Of a stretch of DNA of 32,000 bases, positions 1,967 to 32,000 are shown piece after piece. How positions within the stretch are numbered: position 1 is the first letter of the stretch; each line of letters starts with the position of its first letter. The stretch covers positions 1,349 through 33,348 of the forward strand of contig JAVBJS010000017.1 in the NCBI GenBank assembly GCA_031546885.1, in the 5' to 3' direction. The DNA is from Desulfovibrio sp. Lineage in GTDB: Bacteria; Desulfobacterota; Desulfovibrionia; Desulfovibrionales; Desulfovibrionaceae. The notes below the pieces were generated by a model that was not told the DNA's origin, did not search any database, and saw nothing but the letters and a program-made list of their open reading frames with translations. The position numbers and the translations under genes were made by a program.

Positions 1967-3085
1967 TTATGAAAAAAGTCGAAACAGGTGTTCGTCATTT
2001 TTTTTCTGCCCGTATGCCGTTGTAATAAATAGCTGCTGACGGGCTTTTTCTTCTTCGGTGAGTGGAGTTAAAAGGGCGGCGGGTGTGAGTTCTTCAAAAT
2101 TTCCTATGCTGTCCAAGCTCTCTTTGTAGCTGCCGAACATGGGGTTTTGGGAGGAAAGAAAAACTTTTTTTCCATAGTACAGAAGCTTTTTAATGGTCAG
2201 CCCCCCGAGATGATAATATCCAGCCATTATTGCTGCTGTTGAATTGCGCAGTAGTGTATTATGCAGTGGCTCTGAGAGTGCTTCCTGCATGGGAATAAAC
2301 GTTTCCCCAAGGTGTTCTTTTCCATATTGCGTAATTGGACAAGTCATGGTGTCCGCACCATATGCCAATTGCGCTACAAAAATAACATCTGAAGGAAATT
2401 TCATGTTTTTGAGCATGTCGATGATATCAATATAATTATTATATATAACTGATGAATTTCCCAACAAAATAATACGGACACTTTTATCGCATATAAAGGA
2501 TAGGTGCTGTGGAAAAGAGTTGTCTTGTTCCGTGGCAGACTGTACAGAAAATGGGAATGAAAAATCATATGTTTTGGGAGTTTCAATTCCAAAATCTGTG
2601 CGGATATCATTTATGCTGTGCGCATCTGAAAGAGTAAACGCATCAACCCGCGCTATGGCTCTGCGCTGTATGTCCGGAATGGATTTCGGAGCAAGCGGAA
2701 CACAGTTCCGCCGCTCGGCCCATGAACTCGTTCGTGGGCCGAGAAGATTATTGAATCGAGAAGCCATGCTCATATATGCGGGTTCAAAAATACCCCAGAT
2801 AACTTCTGGCCCCTTGGGAATAGCTGCCACCCAAGGTGCCAGATTAGGATACAGATTAAACAGAATAATCTTTTTATAGTCAGTGGCAGGCCTGGGAAGT
2901 TGGCTATGCGGCGCTTCCGCAAGCGGAATAAAGGGGATCTGTTCTTCGTGTGCGTCAAGGTGGGTATACTGATTCTTGGAGCGATATGTACAAACGATCT
3001 GGTTCTTGGCGGAGAGGCCGAGTTGTCGTAAGCGCTGTACCATAGACGCGGAAAAAAAATTATCGCCAATGAGCAACAGGTTCAT
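1967..3085 (-). CDS. Putative glycosyltransferase resembling WecF / GT56 (TDP-Fuc4NAc transferase family), tentative
   Basis: 372-aa ORF whose start overlaps the upstream stop by 1 nt. By-eye collinear resemblance to my recollection of E. coli WecF: PEVIWGIFEPAY vs FFWHIWGADLY, RIILLGNSSVIYNNY vs MTILVGNSGDRSNEH, GGLTIKKLLYYGKKVFLSSQNPMF vs [24 protein letters not shown]. No profile search was run. Confidence 0.5.
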   Translation of the reverse strand: MNLLLIGDNFFSASMVQRLRQLGLSAKNQIVCTYRSKNQYTHLDAHEEQIPFIPLAEAPHSQLPRPATDYKKIILFNLYPNLAPWVAAIPKGPEVIWGIFEPAYMSMASRFNNLLGPRTSSWAERRNCVPLAPKSIPDIQRRAIARVDAFTLSDAHSINDIRTDFGIETPKTYDFSFPFSVQSATEQDNSFPQHLSFICDKSVRIILLGNSSVIYNNYIDIIDMLKNMKFPSDVIFVAQLAYGADTMTCPITQYGKEHLGETFIPMQEALSEPLHNTLLRNSTAAIMAGYYHLGGLTIKKLLYYGKKVFLSSQNPMFGSYKESLDSIGNFEELTPAALLTPLTEEEKARQQLFITTAYGQKKNDEHLFRLFS

Positions 3086-4023
3086 CAGGCCTTCTCTTTG
3101 TTAGGTAGATGGAAGTCCGCGTAGGCAGACTGCCAATCCATGCACTGGCGGCATATATCCGGAAGTTTTTCATAGTCGCCACCAAGATGCATGTGTCGGT
3201 AAGAGGCCAGCGGCCCGTTCTGCCATAGTTCTTTCATGCTGTGGCTGAGTACGGAGCCACAGAGAACGCGCCCATGCACATCGACAGCACAGAGGTGTAC
3301 AGAGCCATCGCTGCCCACCACCATTGTGTGCAGCATCCAGTAACAGGGCAGACGGTGCGCCTGTAGAGAGGCATTGAGATTGCCCGCATCTACCAATCCG
3401 CCCCAACTCACTTTCGGGCGGACTTTGACCGCAATGTTGTGCGCGGCCCAGAAGGCTTTAAAGTCTGTGACCTCATGAGCATTATGTTCTGTAGTGATAA
3501 ATTGCACAAAAATTTTTTGTTCCGGCTTGCCTGCCTTTTGCAGTAGTTCGGCGTAAAGCTGGACGTTGCTGATCACGGATGCGAGATTACCGCCGATACG
3601 CATTTTTGCGTATGTTTCCTGTGTAAGCGCATCCACCCCGACATACAGGGCGTCAAGGCCGGCTTCAATATAGGCGCGGGCCTTTTGCTCTGTAATCAAG
3701 GTACCGTTGGAATTTAGTACAACATCTTGTAACCCCTGTTTTTTTGCATAGGCGATACGCTGCGGCATGTCCTGGCACAGAAAAGGTTCACCGAAAAAAA
3801 CAAGCCAGACACGCGACTGTGGACGCTCTGTGGCAATTTCATCAATGAGCCGTGTATAGAGCGCAAAAGGCATGGTTTCAATTTTTCTATATTCCTTAAT
3901 ATGTACATGGTCGCACATTGAGCAACGAAGGTTGCAAGCACTGGTAGAATCGATGCTAATACTATGAGGAAATTCTTTGCAATCTTCAAATACTCTTGTC
4001 CGAAGTGAACTAAATGACGTCAT
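3085..4023 (-). CDS. Radical SAM enzyme with SPASM/twitch-type C-terminal Cys motifs
   Basis: CxxxCxxC motif (CNLRCSMC) near the N-terminus. C-terminal C-x13(G)-x4-C (CYWMLHTMVVGSDGSVHLC) followed by CRQC. I chose the start at ATG 4023 (MTSFSS); 4044 or 4125 are also possible. It overlaps the upstream gene by 14 nt. Confidence 0.85.
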   Translation of the reverse strand: MTSFSSLRTRVFEDCKEFPHSISIDSTSACNLRCSMCDHVHIKEYRKIETMPFALYTRLIDEIATERPQSRVWLVFFGEPFLCQDMPQRIAYAKKQGLQDVVLNSNGTLITEQKARAYIEAGLDALYVGVDALTQETYAKMRIGGNLASVISNVQLYAELLQKAGKPEQKIFVQFITTEHNAHEVTDFKAFWAAHNIAVKVRPKVSWGGLVDAGNLNASLQAHRLPCYWMLHTMVVGSDGSVHLCAVDVHGRVLCGSVLSHSMKELWQNGPLASYRHMHLGGDYEKLPDICRQCMDWQSAYADFHLPNKEKA

Positions 4024-13723: not shown

Positions 13724-15592
13724 TTAAAATAAAGAATTGTAGTCTGTTCGTTCAAATATGGTGAGATCTCCACCAATGGAGGCATTATGTATTTTTCTTC
13801 CTGCCGCTTCAAATGTTTCTCGTGCAAGTTTAAAATTACGCTCAACATGATAAAGCTGCGGATCATGCCATATTTTATTTTTAAAGTACTCAGGATGAAA
13901 GTGATTTGGATCGTCCTGCTCCGAGCATATTTGGTTCCCAGTAATATGCGCTCCAGAGGGGATAACATAGCGGTGATCCATTCCAATCAAGTACACTTCA
14001 CGGCACCCCAGCCAATAGGCCAGTTGCATATTAGTATAGGATATTGTGTGCCCGCTATATGATCTTTCCGCAAAGCATGTGGAAAAATGAGGTTGATGAT
14101 ACAGAGGTGAACTTTGACTGTAAAAACCTAAATTCAAGCGAAACCAATAGGAGTTGCTCCTATTGCTAATGCTGTCCCAATATTTGGTTGGAATGACGCG
14201 AGTGGCGACGGTATAAGCGTTAATAGCCGCAACATTCGCTTTAACAAATTCTGGGTCTTCCACAGTATAGAACGTGGGGATAAACCCTGTTTCTTCTGTT
14301 TTATAAAATATTCCATTACATGCGATGGTTATATCATCCTGTAGCAGACTAAGGTCATGCAAATTAAGAGACGGCCCGTTCCCTATAATAAAACAGCGCC
14401 TGTTGGCGTACAAGTTTTTCAAAGGCAACAGATCATTCCCATCAATAGGCCAAGGGCCGGGCTCTTCAAAGGTGCCCTGTTTCTCAGTTTTGGCAGACCT
14501 GCTGCCTTCAGCTTTTGCCGATGGGCAAACAGAAATGTGTGACTCTGACAACGTTATTTTTTCAAGCTCATGACGGAGCAGAAGATTCTCTTCTTTCAGA
14601 AGCCGTATTGTTTCTTCATGTTGCAAACGCAAGTACTTTTGTCTATCAAAAAAATGTAGTGCTTGCTGATACGCCACCAACATTGTTTTTGCCAAAGAAT
14701 CTAGGCTTACATTTTTCGTAGATGCAGCCAGCAAAGCAGCCAGATCCTCATCTGGAGATTCTGGCAAAGCGTCTGTGGCCATTGTGCGGAGGTTGCTGTA
14801 GAGTCGCGCTAAAAAACTTGTCTTCATTCGCTCTATCAGTTCATCCGGTACACCCTTTGTCCTGGCATAGGGGAGAAATTCCCTGAGCATCAACCCCATG
14901 GCTTCCACGGTTTCGGCTTTTTCACGCGATGCATTGTTGCACCAGTGGTGCCCATAAGCCATATGTTCAGTGCCTGCGTAACGGGTAGCATGTAGCAGAT
15001 AATGCGAAACCAGCAGTAAATCTTCCCGCCAGTGGCGTACTCCACTTGCTTGTGCACCCTCAAGTATTTTGAGCCACAGATCTCGCGAATACAGTTTGTT
15101 GTAAACGACATGCGCCCGCATGTCGGCATGTACGTAGGTAGAAAAAATATCGGGAGCTAGGAGGCGATCGTTGTAGGGGTGCGCCCATATCCATTCTCCC
15201 CGAAAACTGTGATCTTCGCCCAACATGGCAATGGGAAAATGAACAACATCGGCTTGCTCGTGCAGCATCACTTCTATATTTTTCGCCAACTCCTGTGTTC
15301 CCCACAGAATATCGTCAGCGTCCGCAAAAGCGATAATGCCCCCCCGTGCCTCTTTAATGCCAGTAAGGCGAGCATTTTTTGTGTATTGCCTGGTCGTATG
15401 TTCAATACATCGAATATTCAACCCTTTATCCAAATATTCAATAATAATATCCATGCAATGTTCATCAGAGGCATCATCAACAACGATAACTTCCATAGAA
15501 TGCACGTCTTGCGCAAGAATACTGTCAAGCAGACGCGGCAAAAGGTGCTTATGGTTATAATTGGCAATAACAATAGTAATTATTGGTGGCAT
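13724..15592 (-). CDS. Bifunctional glycosyltransferase: N-terminal GT2 domain, coiled-coil linker, C-terminal DUF115 (MptE-like / Maf-type) domain
   Basis: N-terminus: ITIVIANYNHKHLLPRLLDSILAQ...VIVVDDASDE...AFADADD. Linker: LRLQHEETIRLLKEENLLLRHELEKI. C-terminus: RRCFIIGNGPSLNLHDLSLLQDDITIACNG ... QLAYWLGCREVYLIGMDH. The GNGPSL box and the G-x-D box are the hallmarks I associate with DUF115/motility-accessory-factor and sialyltransferase-like proteins. Confidence 0.8.
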   Translation of the reverse strand: MPPIITIVIANYNHKHLLPRLLDSILAQDVHSMEVIVVDDASDEHCMDIIIEYLDKGLNIRCIEHTTRQYTKNARLTGIKEARGGIIAFADADDILWGTQELAKNIEVMLHEQADVVHFPIAMLGEDHSFRGEWIWAHPYNDRLLAPDIFSTYVHADMRAHVVYNKLYSRDLWLKILEGAQASGVRHWREDLLLVSHYLLHATRYAGTEHMAYGHHWCNNASREKAETVEAMGLMLREFLPYARTKGVPDELIERMKTSFLARLYSNLRTMATDALPESPDEDLAALLAASTKNVSLDSLAKTMLVAYQQALHFFDRQKYLRLQHEETIRLLKEENLLLRHELEKITLSESHISVCPSAKAEGSRSAKTEKQGTFEEPGPWPIDGNDLLPLKNLYANRRCFIIGNGPSLNLHDLSLLQDDITIACNGIFYKTEETGFIPTFYTVEDPEFVKANVAAINAYTVATRVIPTKYWDSISNRSNSYWFRLNLGFYSQSSPLYHQPHFSTCFAERSYSGHTISYTNMQLAYWLGCREVYLIGMDHRYVIPSGAHITGNQICSEQDDPNHFHPEYFKNKIWHDPQLYHVERNFKLARETFEAAGRKIHNASIGGDLTIFERTDYNSLF

Positions 15593-16843: not shown

Positions 16844-17812
16844 TTATAATTGCAGAGATTTTATGGTATCTCTTACAACTTCTGCGTTGAGTGCAGTGGC
16901 AACAATCATGGCTTTAGTAAGTGTTTTTTTGTCAAAAAGCCGTAGGGCCTCTTTAAATAGGAGCCCTTGTGGATCAAAACCTTCCGACGCTGCAAGAGAG
17001 AGCCTCCCTGCGGCAACGCGCAATATTTTCAGGTACTTTTCCGAGAAAAGACGCAGTGTTTCCTCTGAGCAGCCCTGCTTTGCATAGTAGGGTAACACTT
17101 CTTCCAGCATGAGATAGGCATAAATGGTTCGCTCCGCCGTGTCTTGATTTCGCTTGCTGACGAAGCGGTAACCGTAGCCAACGTGCTCGCTCCCCGCGTA
17201 TTTGCGCGCATGGAAAAGAAAAAGGGGTGTCAAGTACGTATCTTCCGCATATCGGTAAAACCTGGTCTTCCAGGCCGTGTCAAGAACTTCCAGCCACTTC
17301 GCACGGGAATACAGTTTGTTCCAAACGACATCGCTTGCGTATGGCGTGCGCAGATAGGTGGTAAAGATATTTTCATTGCAGCCAGCAGGCATAAAAGGGT
17401 TGCCAAAATTAAAGTAAGAAGTAAAATCCCCGTGCGCATCGATTATCCCCGAGCGAAATTGCAGCACATCCAAATCGTTGTCGATAAATTGTCTTACGTG
17501 CTTTTCCAGCACCTCGGTACCCCATAGCAGGTCATCGGCATCCGCAAAGGCTATAATATCCGCCGTACTTGCTTTTATTCCAGCCAGTCGCGCGTTCTTG
17601 GTATATAACCGCTGAGGTGCGGTGATAAAGCGTATATTCAGCCCCTTGCTTCTGTAGGCTTCCAGCACATCAGTATAGGGGATGTCAGAATAGTCGTCTG
17701 ACACTACCACTTCCACCTCTCGCAGGGTCTGTGCTAGGATACTATCGAACAACATAGGCAGTGCATGCCCATGATTTCGGTTCGGAATAATTATGGAAAT
17801 AAGCGGCTTCAT
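16844..17812 (-). CDS. Family-2 glycosyltransferase
   Basis: LISIIIPNRNHGHALPMLFDSILAQTLREVEVVVSDDYSD ... IIAFADADDLLWG. Close paralog of 18506-19495 and of the N-terminal domain of 13724-15592. Confidence 0.85.
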   Translation of the reverse strand: MKPLISIIIPNRNHGHALPMLFDSILAQTLREVEVVVSDDYSDIPYTDVLEAYRSKGLNIRFITAPQRLYTKNARLAGIKASTADIIAFADADDLLWGTEVLEKHVRQFIDNDLDVLQFRSGIIDAHGDFTSYFNFGNPFMPAGCNENIFTTYLRTPYASDVVWNKLYSRAKWLEVLDTAWKTRFYRYAEDTYLTPLFLFHARKYAGSEHVGYGYRFVSKRNQDTAERTIYAYLMLEEVLPYYAKQGCSEETLRLFSEKYLKILRVAAGRLSLAASEGFDPQGLLFKEALRLFDKKTLTKAMIVATALNAEVVRDTIKSLQL

Positions 17813-22371: not shown

Positions 22372-23511
22372 TCATTTTACAGATTTTTTAACAATCTGCA
22401 TAATCCGTTCCACAATTCCCTCTTCAAGGTCTGCATACAAAGGCAAACTAAGAACTCGTGTACATATGCTTTCTGCTACCGGGCAGTGGGTACGGCTTGT
22501 CAGATAAGGTAATGTATTAAGAGCGGGGTAAAAATAGCGGCGAGGGAAAATATTTTCTTGATTCATGCTCACCAAGGCCCGTTGCATGGCGTTGGTATCA
22601 TCAAAGATTACAGGGTAATAGGCATAGTTATAGGTAATGTCGCTGTGCAGGCGTGGTTTGCGCACTCCATGGGAAGGGAAAAAAGAATCATATAGCTGGC
22701 TAATCTTTTTTCTGTCCGCAATGTTTTGAGTGACTTTATCCAATAAACAGAGCCCCATTGCCGCATGCGGCTCTGTGAGTTTGGCATTGATGCCAAGTGT
22801 ATGGTGAGTATCGTTTGTATGTCCAAAAGCCCGCAACAATGCTAAATAATCATACGATGCCTGAGTGCGGCTAACAATACCGCCACCTTCAACTGTATGA
22901 AACACCTTAGTGGCGTGAAAGCTCACTGTTGAAAAATCTCCATACGAGAGTAGACTTTTCCCTTTATAAAGCGTTCCAAAAGCCTGAGCTGCATCATAAA
23001 GAGTCGTCAGGTTATTGCGTGCGGCAATTTTTTCAATGGCCTCCACATCACAAGCGTTGCCATAAACATGTACAGGCAATATCGCACCTGTAGCATCAGA
23101 GCAAAGGTTTTCCAGGTTGCCAGGGTCGAGGCAGAGCGTTTCTTCGTCAATATCCGCAAAAATAGGGGTACACCCTTCCCATAAAACGGCGGAAACAGAA
23201 GCCACATAACTGAACGGTGTAGTGATAATTTCCCGACCTACCAAGCCACCTGCCCGCAAGCTGAGTTGAAGAGCAAGTGTCCCATTAGTACACAACGCCA
23301 AAAAAGGAATATCCAAAAATTTACAGAGCTCTTGTTCAAGCCTGGCCGTGTGCTCTCCCATGTTAGTGAGATGACGCGAGGAGAGAATGCGTGAAATACA
23401 TTCGGCGTATTCCACTGGGTCAGGAATAATCGCTCTGGTAACATGAATGGCTTGTTGGGATCGATTGCCATCACAACAAGGTACTGCATTTTCCGGCGTA
23501 GATTCTATCAC
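22372..23511 (-). CDS. DegT/DnrJ/EryC1/StrS-family PLP sugar aminotransferase (first gene of the island operon)
   Basis: LALCTNGTLALQLSLRAGGLVGREIITTPFSY, DAAQAFG, VSFHATKVFHTVEGG. GTG start at 23511 preceded by AAGGAA 6-7 nt upstream. Confidence 0.9.
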   Translation of the reverse strand: MIESTPENAVPCCDGNRSQQAIHVTRAIIPDPVEYAECISRILSSRHLTNMGEHTARLEQELCKFLDIPFLALCTNGTLALQLSLRAGGLVGREIITTPFSYVASVSAVLWEGCTPIFADIDEETLCLDPGNLENLCSDATGAILPVHVYGNACDVEAIEKIAARNNLTTLYDAAQAFGTLYKGKSLLSYGDFSTVSFHATKVFHTVEGGGIVSRTQASYDYLALLRAFGHTNDTHHTLGINAKLTEPHAAMGLCLLDKVTQNIADRKKISQLYDSFFPSHGVRKPRLHSDITYNYAYYPVIFDDTNAMQRALVSMNQENIFPRRYFYPALNTLPYLTSRTHCPVAESICTRVLSLPLYADLEEGIVERIMQIVKKSVK

Positions 23512-23632
23512 GCAGTTTCCTTTGTGTTTCTGGCTCTGGGAATCAAGAAAATCCCTTCCGCACCGAAACGTAATTATGTGAGCGTAAAAGCCTTGAAGAG
23601 CGGCCTAAGATTATGGTCTGCCTGTTGTGATG

Positions 23633-23659
23633 ATTATACTTTTTTTCTGATTATTTCAA
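23633..23659 (-). promoter_or_regulatory. Candidate sigma70-type promoter for the minus-strand island operon
   Basis: On the minus strand: TTGAAA (23659-23654), a 15-nt spacer, then a perfect TATAAT (23638-23633). It lies about 120 nt upstream of the GTG at 23511. The spacer is shorter than optimal. Confidence 0.4.
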
Positions 23660-23782
23660 GCCTGTGGGGGCATACCCTCAGAGCAAGGGCAGAAAGAGAT
23701 TTGCACCTGAATTTTACTAGAAACCCAAAAAATGAGTTCGTTGCACATTGCAACGAGCTCTGGCGATTGCGCAGCAAACGCC

Positions 23783-23938
23783 CGCAAGCGGACAGCGTAG
23801 CGTGCCTTTCTTTCAAAATTCGTAGCGGATTTTGAAAGCTTGTTGGAAAATTATGCCTTATTTTTCAGCAAGATAAAACGATACATTTTCTTATCCAGTG
23901 AAGATAAAGAGAAAGGCACGCTGCGCTGTTCGCTTGCG
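23783..23938. repeat. 30-bp imperfect inverted repeat pair (27/30) enclosing a 96-bp segment
   Basis: Left arm, 23783-23812: CGCAAGCGGACAGCGTAGCGTGCCTTTCTT. The reverse complement of the right arm, 23909-23938, is CGCAAGCGAACAGCGCAGCGTGCCTTTCTC. Confidence 0.8.
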
Positions 23939-24060
23939 AGCACCTGCTACGCAGTTGCCAGAGGCCATTGTGCAATGGCCTCTGCCTTGTGAAATTTGCA
24001 GCGAATTTTGAAAGCCTGTTAAAACTTTAGATATTTATTTTCAGCTAGATGCAAGAACGA
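23803..24060 (+). repeat. Two diverged copies of a roughly 80-nt direct repeat (23803-23881 and 23977-24060)
   Basis: Shared blocks are GCG(G/A)ATTTTGAAAGC(T/C)TGTT and TATTTT(T/-)CAGC(A/T)AGAT...AACGA, about 176 nt apart. Each copy carries a TTGAAA box (23832-23837; 24008-24013). Copy 2 has GATATT 16 nt downstream. Confidence 0.65.
23959..23984. repeat. 26-nt near-perfect palindrome
   Basis: CAGAGGCCATTG TG CAATGGCCTCTG: 12-bp arms, with only the central dinucleotide breaking the symmetry. Confidence 0.85.
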
Positions 24061-24351
24061 CTTTACTCCCGCGGAAGCGAAAAAATAGATTGCTTGTTGA
24101 ATGTTTAATAAAATCAGTTGAGCGGCTGCCATTAAACAGAGATATTTCTTTTTTTCTAGACTTATGTTAGAGAGCGGCGTCAATTACTACTATTTTCTGA
24201 TAGACTGTTTCATATTTGAAATTGTTGAAATTATCCAGACCTACCATATCAGAAGAAATGTTTTCTACAGATGCAGGTGTAAGGGATTGCGTTGTCACAA
24301 AGCAATTGCCTGAACAGGCGGGCTGCATAAATTTTGAGGGAGAAAAAGCTC

Positions 24352-25608
24352 ATGCAAGGACAGAGTATTCCTATAGGCGTAGAATCGCTTGCTCAAGAAG
24401 AAGACTGGCGTGAGCCGGGCGTGCTCTATGCAGATGCGCCCGACCTGCTCGATATGTGGTATGGTATGGCTATGGCAGACTATGTAGCCGGAGGTTTTCG
24501 CAGTGATGACCCACGAGCTATCATGCAAGGGCCGCAGGAAACAAACGCTCTGGAGCAATTTTACAGCGAAGACTTGGCCCTTGGTAGAACCGCAGGAGCC
24601 GCTAGCGTCTATGGTAATGAATCTGCCCATTCACCCTCAGCACCTTTGGCGCAAGAATATATGCAGCCCGCCCCCATGGCACAGGCTCCGCAAGCCCCTA
24701 TTATGCAGCCGACCCCGATGATGCAAACTCCGCAAGCTCCTATTATGCAGCCGACCCCGATGATGCAAACTCCGCAAGCGCCATACACCGCTCCGGTCAT
24801 GCAGGCAGCTCCCACGATGCAAGCTCCGCATACTGTTTCGGATCTGCAACCTGCTCTCATGATGCAGGCTTCGCAACTTCCGCAGGCTCCGTATAGTGCT
24901 CCACCTATGCAGCCAGCTTCCATGATGCAAGCCCCACAGGCACAGTACATAGCTCCGGCCATGCAGCCTGCGTCTACGATGCAGGCCCAGTACATAGTTC
25001 CGGTTATGCCGCCTGTGCCTACGATGCAGGCTCAGTTCATAGCTCCGGCCATGCAGCCTGTGCCTATTGCACAGGTGGTGCAAACTCCTTACAGCGCCCC
25101 GGCGATGCAACCGGCATCTGTAGTGTCGGCTCCGCAAGCTGCGCATCCCGTTTTGGCCATGCAGCCAGCCCCTGCGATGCAGGTAGCCCCGGCAGCGATT
25201 ACGGCGCCGAATGCCGGAGGAGATGACGTGGCAGTGGTTGAGGCTGAATTGCGTGCGGAATTTGAAAATATTCTGTTAGCCATGCGCAGTGATAGCGCTA
25301 TGGATATTTCTTCCGCTCTTGCAACGATTTTTTCGCGGCGGCATCTGCTGACGCGGCGACAAAAGCATATGTTTTCGGAATTTGGCGCAACGCTTCGCCG
25401 CGAGCGCCAGCATAAGCATTCGCTTGCCTGCCATATGCAGGCTTTGCTTCTTGCCCCTGGTGATGGGCATATACTGTTTAATATAGCGCGGGCTAAATAT
25501 GATCTGGGCGATATTCCTTCTGCCAAGACATACTTGGAACAGGCCCTTGCGGCTTCGCCGGATTTTGCTGTAGCTCAGAATTTTTTGGACTTTTTGAATA
25601 GTAACTAA
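24352..25608 (+). CDS. Met/Gln/Pro/Ala-rich tandem-repeat protein with a TPR-like C-terminus, function unknown
   Basis: The track ORF starts at TTG 24334. ATG 24352 is preceded by GAGGGAG 9 nt upstream. The central region of about 190 aa is a degenerate array of MQ(P/A)xP...MQAPQAPY units. The C-terminus (HILFNIARAKYDLGDIPSAKTYLEQALAASPDFAVAQNFL) looks TPR-like. No obvious signal peptide. Confidence 0.7.
   Translation: MQGQSIPIGVESLAQEEDWREPGVLYADAPDLLDMWYGMAMADYVAGGFRSDDPRAIMQGPQETNALEQFYSEDLALGRTAGAASVYGNESAHSPSAPLAQEYMQPAPMAQAPQAPIMQPTPMMQTPQAPIMQPTPMMQTPQAPYTAPVMQAAPTMQAPHTVSDLQPALMMQASQLPQAPYSAPPMQPASMMQAPQAQYIAPAMQPASTMQAQYIVPVMPPVPTMQAQFIAPAMQPVPIAQVVQTPYSAPAMQPASVVSAPQAAHPVLAMQPAPAMQVAPAAITAPNAGGDDVAVVEAELRAEFENILLAMRSDSAMDISSALATIFSRRHLLTRRQKHMFSEFGATLRRERQHKHSLACHMQALLLAPGDGHILFNIARAKYDLGDIPSAKTYLEQALAASPDFAVAQNFLDFLNSN
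24688..24771 (+). repeat. 42-bp tandem duplication (2 copies, 1 mismatch) inside the repeat-protein gene
   Basis: 24688-24729 and 24730-24771 are CCGCAAGC(C/T)CCTATTATGCAGCCGACCCCGATGATGCAAACT, encoding PQAPIMQPTPMMQT twice. Confidence 0.9.
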
Positions 25609-25706
25609 GCAATTTAACTATGAAAGCCTCACTACGCCAGCAGGTGCTCGCGTAGCATGTCGATTCTTTACTATTATGGGATATCCCAAAGATTACGGGA
25701 GTTTTT

Positions 25707-26651
25707 ATGAACAAGGGAATTACCATAGCTGTTTTGGGTGTACTTTTATGTGCTATGGGATTGGTTTTTTATACACAGATGCAGCAGCCGCCTACCTTGT
25801 CCGGGCCGGTATTGGGTGGTTCTGTGCCTGAGCCCACTGGGCCGACTGTTTACACCTTGACGCCTCAGAGTATAGGGCAAAGCCCTTCCGTAAATACAAC
25901 TGGGGGGGGGCCTGCTCCTGTTGTTGTGAGTACGGGGACAAATAGTGAGTTGCCCAAGCTTTATCCGCCTGTAGTTTCCAGTGCTGCCCCAGTGGAAACT
26001 GAGCCGAAAGCGGTAGAAGCGCCAAAGCCGCCAAGTGCTTTTGCGGGAGCGAGCCTTACGCCTATTCCGATGGAAGGGAAAAAGCCGGAAGAAGCCCCCA
26101 AGGCTCCAGTGATCCCTATTGCTTCTGCCGGGGGCAAAACGGAACCTGCAAAGCCTGCTGTGAAGCCGGAGGATCCCAAAGTCCCTGCTAAGCCGACGGA
26201 TGATAAAACTCCCGCCAAACCAGGGACAGAAGGGGCGAAGCCACCTGTAAAGCCTACTGCGGATACCCAGAAAACTCCAGTAAAACCTGGAGCGGAAGGG
26301 TCAAAGGTAGCTTCTACAGAGCGCCCTGTCATTGATCCGGCGGGCAAGCGCACGCTGAAGGATATTTCTCTGCAAATCTCCGGGAAACAGGTTACCTTAT
26401 ATATCGAGGCAGATACTGCCATGATTAGTAAAACCTTTGCCCTTGTTGCTCCAGACAGGTTGGTTGTTGATTTGCCGGGGACATGGCAGGGAATGCGGGC
26501 TCCGGCTGTTCCCAAGAATAATATTGTGAAGTCTGCTCGTGTGGGAAGTCAACCTTCAGGCCCGCGGTTGGTGTTGGATTTGGAGCGTCCCAGCAAATTT
26601 GAAACAGCTACCAAGCAGGGTGAAAAAGTAGTGGAAATTCGGCTGCAATAG
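25707..26651 (+). CDS. Membrane-anchored AMIN-domain protein with a Pro/Lys/Ala-rich linker
   Basis: GGGAG RBS 6 nt upstream. N-terminal hydrophobic helix (ITIAVLGVLLCAMGLVFY), a PxKP-type linker, and a C-terminal AMIN-like beta domain (LQISGKQVTLYIEADTAM...LVVDLPG...GPRLVLDLERP). Confidence 0.75.
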   Translation: MNKGITIAVLGVLLCAMGLVFYTQMQQPPTLSGPVLGGSVPEPTGPTVYTLTPQSIGQSPSVNTTGGGPAPVVVSTGTNSELPKLYPPVVSSAAPVETEPKAVEAPKPPSAFAGASLTPIPMEGKKPEEAPKAPVIPIASAGGKTEPAKPAVKPEDPKVPAKPTDDKTPAKPGTEGAKPPVKPTADTQKTPVKPGAEGSKVASTERPVIDPAGKRTLKDISLQISGKQVTLYIEADTAMISKTFALVAPDRLVVDLPGTWQGMRAPAVPKNNIVKSARVGSQPSGPRLVLDLERPSKFETATKQGEKVVEIRLQ

Positions 26652-26653
26652 TC

Positions 26654-28324
26654 GTGTCTGTTTCTGCCCCATGTCCTTCCCGCTCCCTTGTCGTTGTGGG
26701 AGGCGGTATGCTGCTTTCACGGCTGCTTGGGTTTGTGCGGGATGTTCTTATTGCGCACCTGCTGGGGCCGGGGGCGGATGCTTTTTTGGTGGTTTTTCGG
26801 GTACCGCATTTTTTTAGACGACTTTTGGCGGAGGGCTCGCTTGGCATTGCCCATTCCGTTGCGTGTTCCCGCATTTTTGCACAGCAGGGGGCTTTGGCTG
26901 TGCTTGGTTTTTCCCGCCATGTTTGGGGCATGGCCTTGTTGGCGTCTTTGTCGCTCACAGGATTGCTTATGCTTGGGGCACAGCCCTTGCTGTTGTTGAT
27001 GGCACCCGGTCTTGGAAGTTTTCCTGAAATTGCGGAACAGGCCACGGGGTTTTTGCGCATCTGTCTCTTATATCTTCCACTCAGTGTGGTGTGTGCCGTA
27101 GCCTATGCCAGTCGCAGTGCGACAGGTGATTTTATTCCACAGGCCTATGGCTCGACACTGCTTAACCTTGCCATTATTTCCACTACCCTCGCGGTTTTTT
27201 TTCTTCTGCATATTGATCCCACAACATCAACCTACACCGCACAGCGTTTTCTATGCTTCGGCATTGTTGCGGGAGGGATTCTCCAGGTTCTTTTTTCTGG
27301 GGGCATACCGCGCGGAGTACGGCATATCCCTTTTTTTCACGATGGTGAGGCCTTTGCTGTTGTCAGGAAAACGCCCGGTCTGGCTTTGGGAGCTGCGGCA
27401 CACCAATTGCAGGTGATAGCAGGAACAATGATAGCCTCCTTCCTTGCGCAGGGAAGTATCAGTGCTCTTTATTTTGCGGAGCGTCTGCTGGAACTTCCGC
27501 TGGGGCTGGCAGGGGCCGCCATTGGTGTGGCTGTATTGCCAAAACTTGCTGTGCAGTATCAAGCTGAAAAACATGAAGATTTTTCAGTAACCTTAGGTTT
27601 TGGATTGCGCTTGAGTGCCTTTGTAAGTCTGCCAGCGGCTGTGGGACTGTTGGTTTTGGCGCATCCCCTTGCCCTTTTGCTTTTTGGGCATGGCGCTTAC
27701 GAGCAGGCTACTCTTGGCAGTATCAGTGGTTGTCTTGCTGCCTATGCGCCTGCCTTGCCTGCCCTGTGTGCCGCTCGCATTCTGCTTTCTGCCGTGGCCC
27801 TTGTGGAAAAAGATATTTTGGAAAAGCCTGAGGGGCGGGCTGCCGGGCCCTCTTCTGATATGGCTGCGGGGGCGGATGCTGCTGGTATGAGATTTGTTCC
27901 TGCACAAGTGGTGCTGATTAGCTTGGCTGTGGCTGTGGGGGCGGGTATTGTGTGTGTTCCCTTTATGGGGGTTGCGGGTGTGGCTCTTGGCAGTTCCCTT
28001 GGGGCGTGGTGCAATGTTCTGCTTTTAGTAAGACAATTGCGGAATCGAGGTGTTGCTTGCCCTTTTCGACAAAATTTCAGAGCGTTTCTCATGTATGCGC
28101 TGGGAGCACTGTGCATGGGTAGGGGAATACAGGGGTTGCTTATTTTGTTTTCGCCGCAAGGTAAAATAGCTCTTGCCATATTTTTCAGTGTGACTATAGT
28201 TTTTTGTATGATTTTCTGGTGCGGGGGATGGTTTTTTGCGGGTAATAGTGATTTGCATGGCATCATAACCTCCCTGAAAAAACAGATACCGGAGAGAGCA
28301 AGCTCTGATACCGGGTTGGATTAA
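26654..28324 (+). CDS. murJ: Lipid II flippase MurJ (MviN family)
   Basis: N-terminus LSRLLGFVRDVLIAHLLGPGADAFLVVFRVPHFFRRLLAEGSL matches the conserved MurJ opening. Multi-pass hydrophobic protein. GTG start 3 nt after the upstream stop. Confidence 0.85.
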   Translation: MSVSAPCPSRSLVVVGGGMLLSRLLGFVRDVLIAHLLGPGADAFLVVFRVPHFFRRLLAEGSLGIAHSVACSRIFAQQGALAVLGFSRHVWGMALLASLSLTGLLMLGAQPLLLLMAPGLGSFPEIAEQATGFLRICLLYLPLSVVCAVAYASRSATGDFIPQAYGSTLLNLAIISTTLAVFFLLHIDPTTSTYTAQRFLCFGIVAGGILQVLFSGGIPRGVRHIPFFHDGEAFAVVRKTPGLALGAAAHQLQVIAGTMIASFLAQGSISALYFAERLLELPLGLAGAAIGVAVLPKLAVQYQAEKHEDFSVTLGFGLRLSAFVSLPAAVGLLVLAHPLALLLFGHGAYEQATLGSISGCLAAYAPALPALCAARILLSAVALVEKDILEKPEGRAAGPSSDMAAGADAAGMRFVPAQVVLISLAVAVGAGIVCVPFMGVAGVALGSSLGAWCNVLLLVRQLRNRGVACPFRQNFRAFLMYALGALCMGRGIQGLLILFSPQGKIALAIFFSVTIVFCMIFWCGGWFFAGNSDLHGIITSLKKQIPERASSDTGLD

Positions 28325-28389
28325 ATGAAATATTCTGATTGTTGGGGCACCGCTCCAAACTCCCCCAACTTGCGCACCCGAAGCGATAA

Positions 28390-28415
28390 GGCTTCCCAAA
28401 GGGGTAAGCCCTTTT
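28390..28415 (+). terminator. Candidate intrinsic terminator after murJ
   Basis: GGCTTCCC-AAAG-GGG(T)AAGCC stem (8 bp, one bulge) followed by CTTTT. It lies about 66 nt downstream of the murJ stop. Confidence 0.45.
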
Positions 28416-28517
28416 GGCGAGGCGGCTTGGAGGAGTGAAGTTCCTTTAAAAATCAACAATAAAAATTGCACTTATTGATTTTGACTAGTTCCTCAAAAAT
28501 TTGACACGAGTACATAT

Positions 28518-28958
28518 ATGCCCCCCTTTCGTTTTCGCCTTGAACAGGTACTTGATTACCGCAAGCAGCTTGAAGATCAAGCTATTCAGGCTCTCGCCGC
28601 TGCGACTGCCGAGCGTGACGCGGCGAAGGAGCAGGCAGAGAGGCTTCGTGCGGAAATAGTTGAGCAGCGGGAGCGGATTTATAGAGCCGATTCTTTGACA
28701 AGCGCGGAGCTTTGGTTGGCCCAAAGCTATGAAAGCGCACTACGAGAAGACTTGGAACGTATTTTGCTTAAGATAGCCCAGTTAGAAGAGGAAGTGGATC
28801 ATTGTCGAGTGGATCTTGTGGCCAAGGCGCAAGAGCGAGGGCTTCTGGAAAAACTTAAAGAAAAACAGGCAGTGCGTCATGCCCAAAATGAACGGATTAT
28901 TGAACAGCGAGTCTACGATGAAACAGCAACATTGCGCTTCAAGCCTGCGTCCTTCTAG
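28518..28958 (+). CDS. fliJ: Flagellar export protein FliJ
   Basis: 146-aa all-helical, charged protein beginning PFRFRLEQVLDYRKQLEDQA. This is the typical F-x-F-R-L-x-x-V-L-x-x-R opening of the FliJ family. Confidence 0.7.
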   Translation: MPPFRFRLEQVLDYRKQLEDQAIQALAAATAERDAAKEQAERLRAEIVEQRERIYRADSLTSAELWLAQSYESALREDLERILLKIAQLEEEVDHCRVDLVAKAQERGLLEKLKEKQAVRHAQNERIIEQRVYDETATLRFKPASF

Positions 28959-29847
28959 GCTTTGTCGAATACTTCTCCTTGCGCTCGGGCTTAAGCTTAC
29001 TGTGCTTGGTTTTATGATGTGTGAGCCTCTAACAGCCTCCTTTGTGGGTGCTGTTACGGGTACGCCTGTGTCAGCAGCGCCCGGGGTTGCTCTTGCGGCC
29101 AATTCTAAGGCCGCTGCCGCTGCCGCCCCTGTTGCTCCCCCTGTTCTTGCTCCACCACCGGCTCAGGCCCTGCCGGACGGCAATTTGCCTGACGTAGGCA
29201 TTCAGCGCCCCACTCCCGGCAAGCTGTCAAATCAACTTACGCCAGGAGCTATTCCTGGTGTTGCAGCGCAGCCTGCTGTTCCTGTTGTACCTGTAACAAT
29301 ACCGAACACCACGCCGCGTACCCTGCCTGCCATTAACCGCAGCCTAGCTGCCCCCACTGCAATGACGCCTTCCATTGGCGGCACTCCGACTCCAGGCGCT
29401 CCTGGCGCAACGGGTGCTCCTGGCGATGTTGACGCCACAAGTGTGGCAAGTGCCGGGCCATCTTCAGTTGCGCCTGATATTGCCCGTGATACTTTGACCC
29501 GCAAGCAGGACGACCTTGCCCGCAAAGAGCAGGAGTTGCGCTCCCTTGAAGGCGATCTTTCCGCAAAGCTTGAAAAGATGCAAATTTTGGAAAACCGTTT
29601 GAAGACAATGGTACAAGATGCGGAAGAAACGCGTGATGCCAAATTTCGTCACCTTGTTGACGTTCTTGCCAACATGAAGGGCAAGAACGCCGCAGCCATG
29701 TTGGAAACGCTGGATCAGCGTGTAGCTGTCAAACTTTTGGCAGGCATGCGTGGCCGTCAGGCTGGTGAAATTCTTACCTTTGTTAAGCCAGAGGTTGCGG
29801 CGCACCTTACAGAGGCTCTGGCTCGCATGCAGTTGCCCCTTGAATAA
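28918..29847 (+). CDS. MotE / MgtE_N-like flagellar protein (membrane anchor, Pro/Ala-rich region, coiled coil)
   Basis: C-terminus FRHLVDVLANMKGKNAAAMLETLDQRVAVKLLAGMRGRQAGEILTFVKPEVAAHLTEAL is the MgtE_N/FlbB/MotE-type repeat commonly encoded after fliJ. The start is uncertain (28879, 28888 or 28918). I chose 28918 (MKQQHC...), just ahead of the hydrophobic LCRILLLALGLKLTVLGFMM. Confidence 0.65.
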   Translation: MKQQHCASSLRPSRLCRILLLALGLKLTVLGFMMCEPLTASFVGAVTGTPVSAAPGVALAANSKAAAAAAPVAPPVLAPPPAQALPDGNLPDVGIQRPTPGKLSNQLTPGAIPGVAAQPAVPVVPVTIPNTTPRTLPAINRSLAAPTAMTPSIGGTPTPGAPGATGAPGDVDATSVASAGPSSVAPDIARDTLTRKQDDLARKEQELRSLEGDLSAKLEKMQILENRLKTMVQDAEETRDAKFRHLVDVLANMKGKNAAAMLETLDQRVAVKLLAGMRGRQAGEILTFVKPEVAAHLTEALARMQLPLE

Positions 29848-30628
29848 AAATCGACTTAAGATTCGTTTGGCTTACGAGGGAACACGTTTTGCGGGGTGGC
29901 AGTTGCAGGCTTTTCGCCTCAAGAGCCGCCCCGTAACTGTTCAAGGGGAGCTTGAGCGTGTTTTTGCTACCATGATTGGCGAGCGCATACCTGTCATTGG
30001 AGCTGGCCGCACAGATGCAGGGGTACATGCCGAAGCTCAGGTCTGTCATGTAGATATTCCAGAAGCCTTCGCAGGCGTAAACTGGTTGCGAGCGCTCAAT
30101 GCGCAGCTTCCTCCCGATATTCGCGTGCTTGCGGTTGAGCCTGTACCGGCCACCTTTCATGCGCGAAAGTCGGCCCTTGTCAAAGAGTATGCGTATTCCC
30201 TTTGGATGCATGAAACACGCCCTCTCCCGCGTGTTCAATCTTTTATTTGGGGTGTCTCCCAGCTTGATGTGCAGGCAATGCAGGTTGCAGCGGGCTACTT
30301 AACGGGGCAGCATGACTTTGCTTCCTTTCAAAATTCTGGCACGCCTGGGCGGAACACTGTTCGCACTATTTTTTCCATTACAGCACGGGCAGGAACGGTA
30401 GGCCCCCTGGCGGTTCCCGCAGATTGGCCCGTGCTCACCTGGTGTGTGGAAGGAGAGGGCTTTCTTAAGCAGATGGTACGGAATATTATGGGGTTGCTTG
30501 TCTGGGTTGGGCAGCATAAACTCTCGGCAGAAGCTATTCCGCATATTCTTGCTGCCAAGGATAGAAGTTCCTTGCCAAGTCCCTCTGCACCCGCCAAGGG
30601 ACTGACTTTGCTTAATATTCGATATTAA
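29840..30628 (+). CDS. truA: tRNA pseudouridine(38-40) synthase TruA
   Basis: RLKIRLAYEGTRFAGWQLQ and GAGRTDAGVHAEAQV (catalytic Asp motif). I propose a TTG start at 29840 (8-nt overlap with the upstream gene). ATG 29750 would overlap it by 98 nt. Confidence 0.8.
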   Translation: MNKNRLKIRLAYEGTRFAGWQLQAFRLKSRPVTVQGELERVFATMIGERIPVIGAGRTDAGVHAEAQVCHVDIPEAFAGVNWLRALNAQLPPDIRVLAVEPVPATFHARKSALVKEYAYSLWMHETRPLPRVQSFIWGVSQLDVQAMQVAAGYLTGQHDFASFQNSGTPGRNTVRTIFSITARAGTVGPLAVPADWPVLTWCVEGEGFLKQMVRNIMGLLVWVGQHKLSAEAIPHILAAKDRSSLPSPSAPAKGLTLLNIRY

Positions 30629-30790
30629 GGCATATAGCGAATGAAAAGATTTTAGTACCCTGCTGGGCGCGGTAGCGGATACCCGCTTAGTGGGCCGTTT
30701 TATTGGTATTTGAAGAACGGATAAATAAGTTCTTAGACGCATCTTTTTAGTGCAAGAGGCTCCAGTCAGGGTATTTTGATGCTAAGGGTT

Positions 30791-30796
30791 TATAAT
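30791..30796 (+). promoter_or_regulatory. Possible -10 box upstream of manB
   Basis: Perfect TATAAT 35 nt upstream of the manB ATG. No convincing -35 at 16-18 nt spacing. Confidence 0.25.
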
Positions 30797-30830
30797 TGTT
30801 TGTAATTTTGCAGTATATTGCGAGGTTTCT

Positions 30831-32000
30831 ATGGTAAGTAACTCTGCTGCTTGTTTTAAAGCCTATGATATACGAGGGCGTGTTCCTGATGAATTGCATG
30901 CTGACCTTGCCGTAAAAATAGGTTTAGCTTTGGGGGTAGAGCTTGCGGCAAAGCGTATGGTCGTGGGGCACGACATGCGCCTTTCCAGCCCTGGCCTCTG
31001 CGCTGCTATTACGCAAGGACTGCGTGAAGCCGGTGTGAATGTTACCGACATAGGGCTTTGCGGTACCGAAGAGATATACCATGCCACCTTCTCTCAAGAT
31101 TTTGACGGGGGGGTTATTGTCACTGCGAGTCACAATCCGGCAGATTATAATGGTATGAAATTTGTGCGTAAAGGTGCGGCCCCCATAAGTGGTGATAGTG
31201 GGCTTTTTGCCATACGAGATCGGGTACTTACAGATAACCTTCCAAAAGCATCTGCTTTGGGCCGTTATGAACAGGCCAGCTATCGTGCGGAATATGTGCA
31301 GCATCTTCTTGGCTATGTGAACCCCACTGGTTTGCGCCCCATGCATATACTGGTGGATCCCGGCCATGGTTGTGCCGGCCCGGTGATACAGGCGCTTGCT
31401 CCGCACCTTCCCTTTGTTTTCAGCTATATGAGAGAAACGCCGGATGGAACCCTGCCGACGGGTGTGCCCAATCCGCTCTTGCCGGAAAATCGCGCTCACA
31501 CCATTGCCGCTATGAAAGCAACGGGTGCGGATATGGGAATTGCCTGGGACGGCGACTTTGATCGCTGTTTCTTTTATGATGCCCAGGGAAATTTTATTGA
31601 GGGGTATTACATTGTCGGCTTGCTCGCTCAGAGTATGCTTCACGCCCATGCTGGCGCAAAAATTATTCACGATCCACGCCTTGTCTGGAATACGCAGGAG
31701 TTGGTGCAAGAAGCAGGCGGCATTGCTGTGGAATCCAAAACAGGCCATGCTTTTATCAAGGAGCGAATGCGCCTTGAAGATGCCTGGTATGGCGGAGAAA
31801 TGAGCGCGCATCATTACTTTAAGCGTTTTGCTTATTGTGATAGCGGTATGATTCCATGGTTGCTGGTAGCAGAGCTTATGTGCCGCCGGGGAAGAACCCT
31901 TGCGGATCTGGTGCGGGAGCGGATGGAGAAATTTCCCTGTAGCGGCGAAATTAACCGGGCTGTCAATTGCCCGCAGGACGCTGTGGATGCTGTGCGTAAA
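30831..32000 (+). CDS. manB: Phosphomannomutase/phosphoglucomutase (3' end runs off the window)
   Basis: Absent from the ORF track because it has no stop in the window. ATG 30831 is preceded by GAGG. My translation MVSNSAACFKAYDIRGRVPDEL...VTASHNPADYNGMKFV... contains the phosphohexomutase active-site TASHNP loop and is collinear with E. coli CpsG/ManB as I recall it. The frame stays open for 390 codons to 32000. Confidence 0.9.
   Translation, partial: MVSNSAACFKAYDIRGRVPDELHADLAVKIGLALGVELAAKRMVVGHDMRLSSPGLCAAITQGLREAGVNVTDIGLCGTEEIYHATFSQDFDGGVIVTASHNPADYNGMKFVRKGAAPISGDSGLFAIRDRVLTDNLPKASALGRYEQASYRAEYVQHLLGYVNPTGLRPMHILVDPGHGCAGPVIQALAPHLPFVFSYMRETPDGTLPTGVPNPLLPENRAHTIAAMKATGADMGIAWDGDFDRCFFYDAQGNFIEGYYIVGLLAQSMLHAHAGAKIIHDPRLVWNTQELVQEAGGIAVESKTGHAFIKERMRLEDAWYGGEMSAHHYFKRFAYCDSGMIPWLLVAELMCRRGRTLADLVRERMEKFPCSGEINRAVNCPQDAVDAVRK

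Follow-up and report, generated by a model that had tools for sequence, protein, structure and literature searches.

Prokaryotic miniature inverted-repeat elements (MITEs) are short, intergenic and bounded by inverted repeats, and they give rise to stable stem-loop transcripts; their direct repeats decay over time, and a genome may contain as few as one copy (PMC10969869). The palindromic element described here resembles the Correia elements of Neisseria and the ERIC sequences of enterobacteria in being small, intergenic and non-coding, in carrying inverted-repeat arms around a distinct centre, in its predicted very stable stem-loop transcripts, in its position in a promoter region and in the occurrence of a copy in an unrelated context (PMC10969869). 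It differs from them in its arms, which are 73-78 nt long and each carry two hairpins kept by compensatory change, and in having neither a TA or other target-site duplication nor a known parent IS. Moreover, two loci are known here, compared to tens to hundreds of copies of Correia and ERIC. No match to the IHF site WATCAANNNNTTR was found in 23700-24060 when up to one mismatch was allowed.

Other described systems share parts of this architecture. Doublets of REP units (BIMEs, REPINs), which are mobilised by RAYT transposases, likewise consist of inverted hairpin units around a spacer, with compensated stems and no target-site duplication. REP units are about 20-40 nt long, occur in tens to hundreds of copies per genome and go along with a RAYT gene, whereas the arms of the present element measure about 75 nt, its copies are rare and no RAYT gene was seen. 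The PATEs derived from IS200/IS605 are non-coding, have hairpins at both ends and lack a target-site duplication. Their ends carry no long inverted repeats, the hairpins occupy subterminal positions, and specific cleavage takes place 10-20 nt beyond them, whereas homology here ends at the foot of the hairpin. Invertible promoters such as those of the Bacteroides capsule loci, fimS of E. coli and the flgB switch of Clostridioides difficile share with our locus the imperfect inverted repeats, a segment of roughly 100-300 bp and the position upstream of a surface or flagellar glycan locus. The recombinases acting on them need far shorter arms than those found here. A literature search returned nothing on Desulfovibrio MITEs or invertons.

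The element lies in an 840-bp divergent intergenic region of the window, by which we mean the whole 32,000-nt stretch of Desulfovibrio sp. DNA that was analysed. To its left, a GTG-started gene for a DegT-family aminotransferase (22372-23511, minus strand) heads a long glycan operon, which further encodes KAS III, ACP, an SDR, a NeuD-like acetyltransferase, GT2 glycosyltransferases, a PseF-like cytidylyltransferase, a GT2 fused to an MptE-like domain (PF01973), several FkbM methyltransferases and three radical-SAM/SPASM proteins. We take PF01973 to be the domain found in Maf flagellin glycosyltransferases. Judged by sequence, the glycan locus may serve flagellin or nonulosonic-acid glycosylation rather than O-antigen. 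On the right, the plus strand carries the genes for a TPR protein (probable start 24352), an AMIN-domain protein and MurJ, the latter with a next best relative of 45% identity after the 100% matches that proteins of the window have in the protein database (P0001, P0121). The protein encoded downstream of murJ (28816-29847) showed a weak match to the flagellar-collar protein FlbB.

A sequence-only reading of this region had described a segment of 156 bp, 23783-23938, bounded by 30-bp arms. The inverted repeat is real, and its arms do match at 27 of 30 positions once position 23812/23909 is included, but these coordinates proved too narrow, as they represent the core of an element extending over 23734-23982 (Table 1). 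None of 100 dinucleotide-preserving shuffles of the window contained a comparable repeat. The inner 29-nt arms differ by two internal mismatches, both transitions (23791 and 23798) and both forming G.U pairs in the stem on the plus strand. Without gaps the inverted repeat reaches 61 nt at 80% (23751-23811 / 23910-23970), and the full arms including the terminal hairpins span 23734-23811 (78 nt) and 23910-23982 (73 nt). The left arm aligns with the reverse complement of the right arm with one 5-nt gap, which falls in a hairpin loop, and this alignment places the termini at GAG...CTC. The right boundary was set by comparison of two copies, with homology covering 23811-23982 at 98.3% and then ending, and the left boundary by arm symmetry.

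Table 1 Features of the palindromic element and its surroundings (window coordinates).
Feature	Position	Strand	Description	Basis
Glycan operon region	1967-23511			
Operon promoter-like site	23633..23659	-	TTGAAA-15-TATAAT, 75 nt outside element	
T-run	23721..23733	-	ATTTTTTGGGTTT, directly outside left terminus	terminator scan, sequence
Whole palindromic element	23734..23982		249 bp; left arm, AT-rich centre, right arm	
Terminal hairpin H1, left arm	23734..23760		12-bp stem, loop CAT, one T.G pair	repeat finder, pair list
Second hairpin of left arm, hp2-L	23762..23782		GGCG-A-TTGC GCA GCAA-A-CGCC	DNA fold, pair list
Inner inverted repeat, left copy	23783..23811	+	arm of the earlier reading	
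AT-rich centre	23812..23909		98 nt, 31% GC; holds H2 palindrome, second hairpin, TTGAAA box	
H2 palindrome	23810-23838		within centre	
Second hairpin of centre	about 23838-23872		13 bp	
Inner inverted repeat, right copy	23910..23938	-		
Second hairpin of right arm, hp2-R	23939..23959			fold, pair list
Terminal hairpin H3, right arm	23961..23982			repeat finder, register with H1
C2 direct repeat	23992..24050	+	75% identical to first 59 nt of centre (23816-23874)	
End sequence of element			GAGTTCGTTGCA...	
Junction expected if centre were inverted	23812-23909		AGCGTGCCTTTCT joined to CTTTATCTTCACTGG	

Each arm consists of three parts, namely a terminal hairpin of 10-12 bp, a second hairpin (hp2) with a 9-bp stem and one internal mismatch in both arms, and the near-identical 29-nt repeat. 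The GC content follows the same division, with 0.59, 0.31 and 0.60 for left arm, centre and right arm, respectively. In the window, H3 is lengthened by two flank bases per side to a perfect 12-bp stem (23959-23984). The dyad previously noted in the centre turned out to be longer than claimed (CTTTCAAAATTCG-TAG-CGGATTTTGAAAG, 23810-23838), with 13-nt arms of 92% complementarity according to the repeat finder, and the reported TTGAAA box was recovered at 23831-23836. The whole unit folds with -144.5 kcal/mol as plus-strand RNA (z = -14.6 in comparison to shuffles), with -127.8 kcal/mol as minus-strand RNA (z = -9.1) and with z = -11.1 as DNA. Together with the adjoining T-run, H1 forms a terminator-like site on the minus strand for leftward transcripts, which the terminator scan reported as an 8-12 bp stem followed by ATTTTTT. 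The T-run lies outside the arm symmetry and therefore may be a property of the locus rather than of the element.

Comparison of the two arms revealed a pattern of change that follows the hairpins. In the outer arm halves, 13 of 41 aligned positions differ between left and right, with transitions accounting for 11 of the 13, and all nine arm differences within the 51 nt adjoining the centre are transitions as well. All 18 local base pairs remain intact in the left as well as the right arm, and five pairs carry changes in both partners (such as U-A to C-G or G-C to A-U); between hp2-L and hp2-R, two pairs are changed in this way. An alignment of the left arm, the right arm and the right arm of the second copy (see below) holds standard pairs in 54 of 54 cells, compared to 28-54% paired cells and 0-1 double changes in slid controls with the 3' partners moved by 1-3 columns. 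In neutral simulations with 13 random substitutions, all pairs survived with P = 1.8e-4 at a ts:tv ratio of 2:1 and with P = 0.01 if only transitions were allowed, values that concern hairpins read from the same sequences as those tested, albeit called independently by the repeat finder and the folding tool. With 13 differences, no broken pair and five double-sided changes, hairpin formation at the element ends therefore appears to be under selection, and the ends are therefore functional structures and not decaying repeats. The same 13 differences weaken the long-range pairing between the arms, so that the outer 49 nt of each arm are conserved as local hairpins and not as one long inter-arm stem. 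Compensatory changes, which the sequence-only reading had named as the mark of a conserved RNA stem, are thus present, but they keep the hairpins of each arm and not the long stem. All three wobble pairs (in H1 of the window, in hp2 of the right arm and in H3 of the second copy) are standard on the strand that is read from the terminus inward, which is a weak hint that this is the folding strand.

Next to this structural evidence stands a second copy of the element. An exact 22-mer of the inner repeat was scanned over 185,579 species-representative genomes, one per species, and gave a single hit, at the start (172 nt) of contig JAVBSC010000054.1, which belongs to a Desulfovibrionaceae MAG (L001). 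This copy comprises the centre and the right arm and is 98.3% identical over the 172 nt, with three differences; the right inner repeat is the same in both. In the region of H3, L001 departs from the window at 23978 and at 23983-84. The first nucleotide of the contig corresponds to position 23811 of the window, where the left repeat ends towards the centre. At the other end, the homology stops abruptly at 23982-84, which is at most 2 nt from the terminus predicted by arm symmetry. Due to this coincidence, the element can be regarded as a discrete unit. The flank of L001 is unrelated to the window and contains a pseudo-tRNA-Ser, HicB, ParE/Phd, an intact tRNA-Ser, pepA and an MCP gene. GC content and tetranucleotide use of window and L001 (r = 0.6-0.7) are compatible with one genome, which is not decisive. 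If the collection holds one genome per species, we infer that L001 does not represent the orthologous locus but an additional copy, residing either in the genome of the window or in that of a different species.

The flank of this second copy shows a rearrangement of its own. Positions 275-385 and 3316-3410 of L001 hold a tRNA-Ser(GCT) on the minus strand and its diverged partial duplicate, which is about 80% identical, comprises the 3' part of the tRNA with the downstream terminator and lies 3 kb apart from the original. Between the two lies a segment of low GC content that encodes HicB, ParE/Phd and an unknown protein of 184 aa, and the arrangement resembles a decayed tRNA-integrated islet. 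The element copy is located about 100 nt beyond the tRNA duplicate.

Wider searches returned little more. An exact 20-mer scan of 241 million metagenome records yielded only one isolated 20-nt match (L002), and viral contigs, plasmids and phages contained no copy in exact-word scans or, for plasmids and phages, in BLAST searches. Exact-word scans of the genome, metagenome and viral collections gave no copy beyond the partial L001, and the element family is therefore rare or has diverged past exact-word detection. The single 22-mer locus among the species-representative genomes argues against a copy number as high as that of REP sequences. A covariance model of the arms detected no further arms in the window or in loci L001-L005. 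L002 shares the 20-mer ACAGCGCAGCGTGCCTTTCT without extended similarity and was taken as a chance match; a few such matches are expected for a 20-mer, as a rough figure from an assumed collection size. In L002 itself (3032-3170), ACAGCGCAGCGTGCCTTTCT lies inside separate 27-nt inverted repeats (AAAATGCGATGCGTTTGGATTTTAAT / ATTAAAATCCAAACGTATCGCATTTT) enclosing about 85 nt, and the sharing of the 20-mer with this unit is probably a coincidence. A match of 23790-23821 to 30305-30336 falls into a TruA-like ORF (29750-30628, pseudouridine synthase domain) and was likewise taken as chance.

The element is non-coding. Within the only long ORF running across it, all three differences between the copies are non-synonymous, and peptides translated across it retrieved no homologues from protein databases, with one junk repeat protein as the only match. 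A further locus (L005; GCA_031551765.1, JAVBNC010000168.1, 4001-9105) carries a syntenic block of DegT, KASIII, ACP, SDR, GT2 and hexapeptide transferase genes with a DegT of 68% identity. It has different upstream neighbours, and its upstream region of 154 nt is GC-rich and does not contain the element. The control region of this operon therefore does not include the element as a conserved component. The accession of the L005 MAG is close to that of L001, and both possibly stem from the same study.

Taken together, our best, if tentative, explanation is that the element is a low-copy MITE-like (foldback-type) palindromic repeat that occupies a region of divergent promoters. It bears more resemblance to a small repeat of the mobile or dispersed kind than to a proven on/off switch. 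The sequence-only reading had preferred an invertible switch and listed a MITE and an RNA stem as alternatives; of these three, the MITE gains most from our analysis, owing to the 98% identical partial copy with unrelated flanks and a homology ending within 2 nt of the predicted terminus, whereas the switch gains nothing. At 249 bp the element is below about 500 bp in size, and it combines its non-coding nature with terminal inverted repeats. Against membership in the plain MITE class stand the two known loci, the lack of a known parent IS, the lack of a transposase in the 32-kb window and in the 8-kb L001 locus, and the lack of a target-site duplication. As had already been noted, no such duplication is discernible: flanking direct repeats do not exceed 3-4 nt at any plausible boundary, and the longest, of 4 nt, is out of register for boundaries within about 10 nt of the predicted ends. 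Furthermore, the arms are conserved most strongly in their inner 29 nt and not at the extreme termini, a pattern more typically seen in recombination sites or RNA stems than in termini bound by a transposase.

If the MITE-like reading holds, a protein encoded at another place would have moved the whole 249-bp element or made copies of it, and the element ends would need to fold into hairpins, either as single-stranded DNA or as RNA. Its local role at the glycan/TPR locus would most likely be passive, in that it would separate two divergent promoter regions and put a hairpin and a T-run in the path of any leftward transcript. While anatomy, hairpin conservation and the sharp homology boundary of the second copy are direct observations, we infer mobility, a mobilising enzyme and any regulatory effect. 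A MITE-like repeat would be a routine annotation item, representing a new rare family in an uncultured sulfate-reducer lineage, and its main value would be to caution against equating every inverted repeat upstream of a glycan operon with a phase switch. The unusual feature is the double-hairpin ends kept by compensatory change. They are the one feature that merits specialist attention, as they imply that the ends act in folded form, and this restricts the range of conceivable mechanisms of mobilisation or RNA function.

Several of these observations also bear on a phase-variable segment, in which a distant site-specific recombinase would flip 23812-23909 within the 29-nt repeats and thereby re-aim a weak promoter or operator of the centre at the glycan operon or the TPR gene. 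We consider such a switch unlikely and place it behind the structured RNA discussed below. The near-perfect match of the inverted repeats exactly at the inner 29 nt is what would be expected of recombination sites, the model predicts no target-site duplication, in agreement with the sequence, and the segment separates a glycan operon, surface or flagellar, from a gene in divergent orientation. Moreover, a Correia element, and thus a MITE, has been reported to invert (PMC10969869), and the two readings are therefore not exclusive. However, no recombinase or transposase domain was detected in any ORF of at least 150 aa in the 32-kb window, for recombinases in agreement with the earlier reading, nor among the six scanned ORFs of the 8-kb L001 locus. 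A switch would also leave unexplained the 49 nt of compensated hairpin structure outside the supposed recombination sites.

A consensus scan found no sigma-70-like site inside the segment; a relaxed scan of the centre returned a minus-strand match, TTTATC-16-CATAAT (23877..23850, 8/12), which speaks for the switch, but better promoter-like sites for both neighbours lie outside. For the operon, these are the site listed in Table 1 and an alternative, TTGAAA-18-AATCAT, with the second hexamer ending at 23630; the best plus-strand site, TTGAAA-16-GATATT (24008-24035), faces the TPR gene from within the C2 repeat. In contrast to the established invertible promoters, two hairpins (hp2 and H1) and the T-run separate the centre from the glycan operon, and no second orientation was observed. 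With the right arm, which can be told apart, as reference, the centre points the same way in the window and in L001, which as one comparison is weak evidence against a switch. The end of the L001 contig falls precisely on the inner border of the expected left repeat. Assemblies often break at such places, and the break might reflect heterogeneity, but the collapse of an inverted repeat in the assembly graph explains it more simply. On these sequences, inversion thus appears unsupported by the present findings. Three further regulatory readings were dropped. A sigma-54 reading of TGGCAACTGCGTAGCA (23959..23944, 9/12) was rejected as the motif is the hairpin hp2, with bases that co-vary between the arms, and a sigma-28 reading of the centre as well as a reading of the H2/H4 palindromes as hix sites of the Hin type were rejected by eye due to misfits in spacing and symmetry.

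The conserved folds raise the alternative of a structured-RNA module in the form of one or two small RNAs or a cis-acting RNA. We regard it as unlikely, albeit as the first among the rivals to the MITE-like repeat. As small RNAs, a pair would be read outward from the centre, each with 29 nt starting with AGAAAGG and followed by two hairpins, the last of which would act as terminator; as a cis-acting RNA, the 29-bp stem would close a three-way junction. An unpaired conserved stretch followed by two hairpins is a common layout of small RNAs, and the conserved 29 nt with their two hairpins resemble it. The five double-sided changes that preserve the hairpins of both arms without a broken pair, the very stable folds and the G.U nature of both inner-stem mismatches on the plus strand argue for an RNA as well, as does the T-run after H1 on the strand reading outward, and the model requires neither a target-site duplication nor a transposase. 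On the other hand, no T-run follows H3 on the plus strand in the window or in the L001 copy, no convincing promoter was found for either RNA, and neither neighbouring gene transcribes into the element. The three wobble pairs, which fit the strand reading inward, become C.A mismatches in RNAs read outward. Searches against Rfam 15 gave no family at gathering score in the 32 kb and only sub-threshold hits to generic hairpins in 23500-24400. In addition, an identity of 98% between two copies in different contexts would be unusual for paralogous sRNA genes.

The C2 repeat just past the right arm is one feature that a simple insertion of a MITE-like repeat does not explain. It lies outside the element, had escaped the sequence-only reading and is absent from the right flank of L001. 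The local alignment of C2 with the corresponding part of the centre (C1) scores 29, compared to a maximum of 17 in 300 shuffles, and the two start 176 bp apart. In C2, the H2 palindrome is retained in sequence in its 3' half, as is the block TTATTTTCAGC-AGAT, while the hairpins are not kept; this pattern resembles DNA-level conservation or the decayed remains of an older copy. Decayed older arms were detected neither beside C2 nor in the left flank by local alignment or covariance model, and the similarity between the left flank and C2 did not exceed that of shuffles.

A direct repeat with a spacing of 176 bp and 75% identity would be odd for a clean insertion and speaks for a functionless relic of a local rearrangement, in which tandem duplication of an ancestral unit, made up of an arm and a centre-like sequence, with a period of 176 bp was followed by inversion of one arm, giving the order A-C1-A'-C2. 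Such a relic is very improbable, as C1 and A' occur in nearly identical form elsewhere without C2 (L001), the arm hairpins are structurally constrained and no further arm-like sequence adjoins C2.

The double-hairpin ends would also fit an element class that has not been described so far, in which structure-specific ends of this kind flank a 29-nt recombination or seed sequence. This suggestion is more doubtful than either the switch or the RNA module, by whichever of two routes it would operate. The element could be moved or flipped as folded single-stranded DNA by a distal enzyme of the HUH or tyrosine type, or it could consist of two sRNA genes in mirror image that spread together as a cassette. 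If the former were true, its orientation or presence would phase-vary the glycan locus, perhaps for flagellin glycosylation, in an uncultured Desulfovibrionaceae lineage.

The composition of the window differs between the two sides of the element. The glycan half (1-23500) has a GC content of mostly 0.41-0.48, with a block of 0.56-0.57 at 5-7 kb, and the core-gene half (24350-32000) one of 0.49-0.56; the tetranucleotide correlation between the halves is 0.65-0.84. This contrast fits a horizontally acquired glycan island, while a chimeric MAG join at the repeat element is an alternative source that should be ruled out. Within the glycan half, two different GT2 glycosyltransferase genes share a 52-nt direct repeat of 77% identity (15060-15111 / 17280-17331), which indicates that their N-terminal domains are paralogous. 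In the other half, the TPR gene (24352-25608) contains in-frame tandem repeats of 42 and 45 nt (24660-25179) in 8 and 7 copies, respectively, with 60-100% identity. They are predicted to encode a repetitive region rich in Pro, Met, Gln and Ala, N-terminal to the TPR domain, and are a candidate for length variation.
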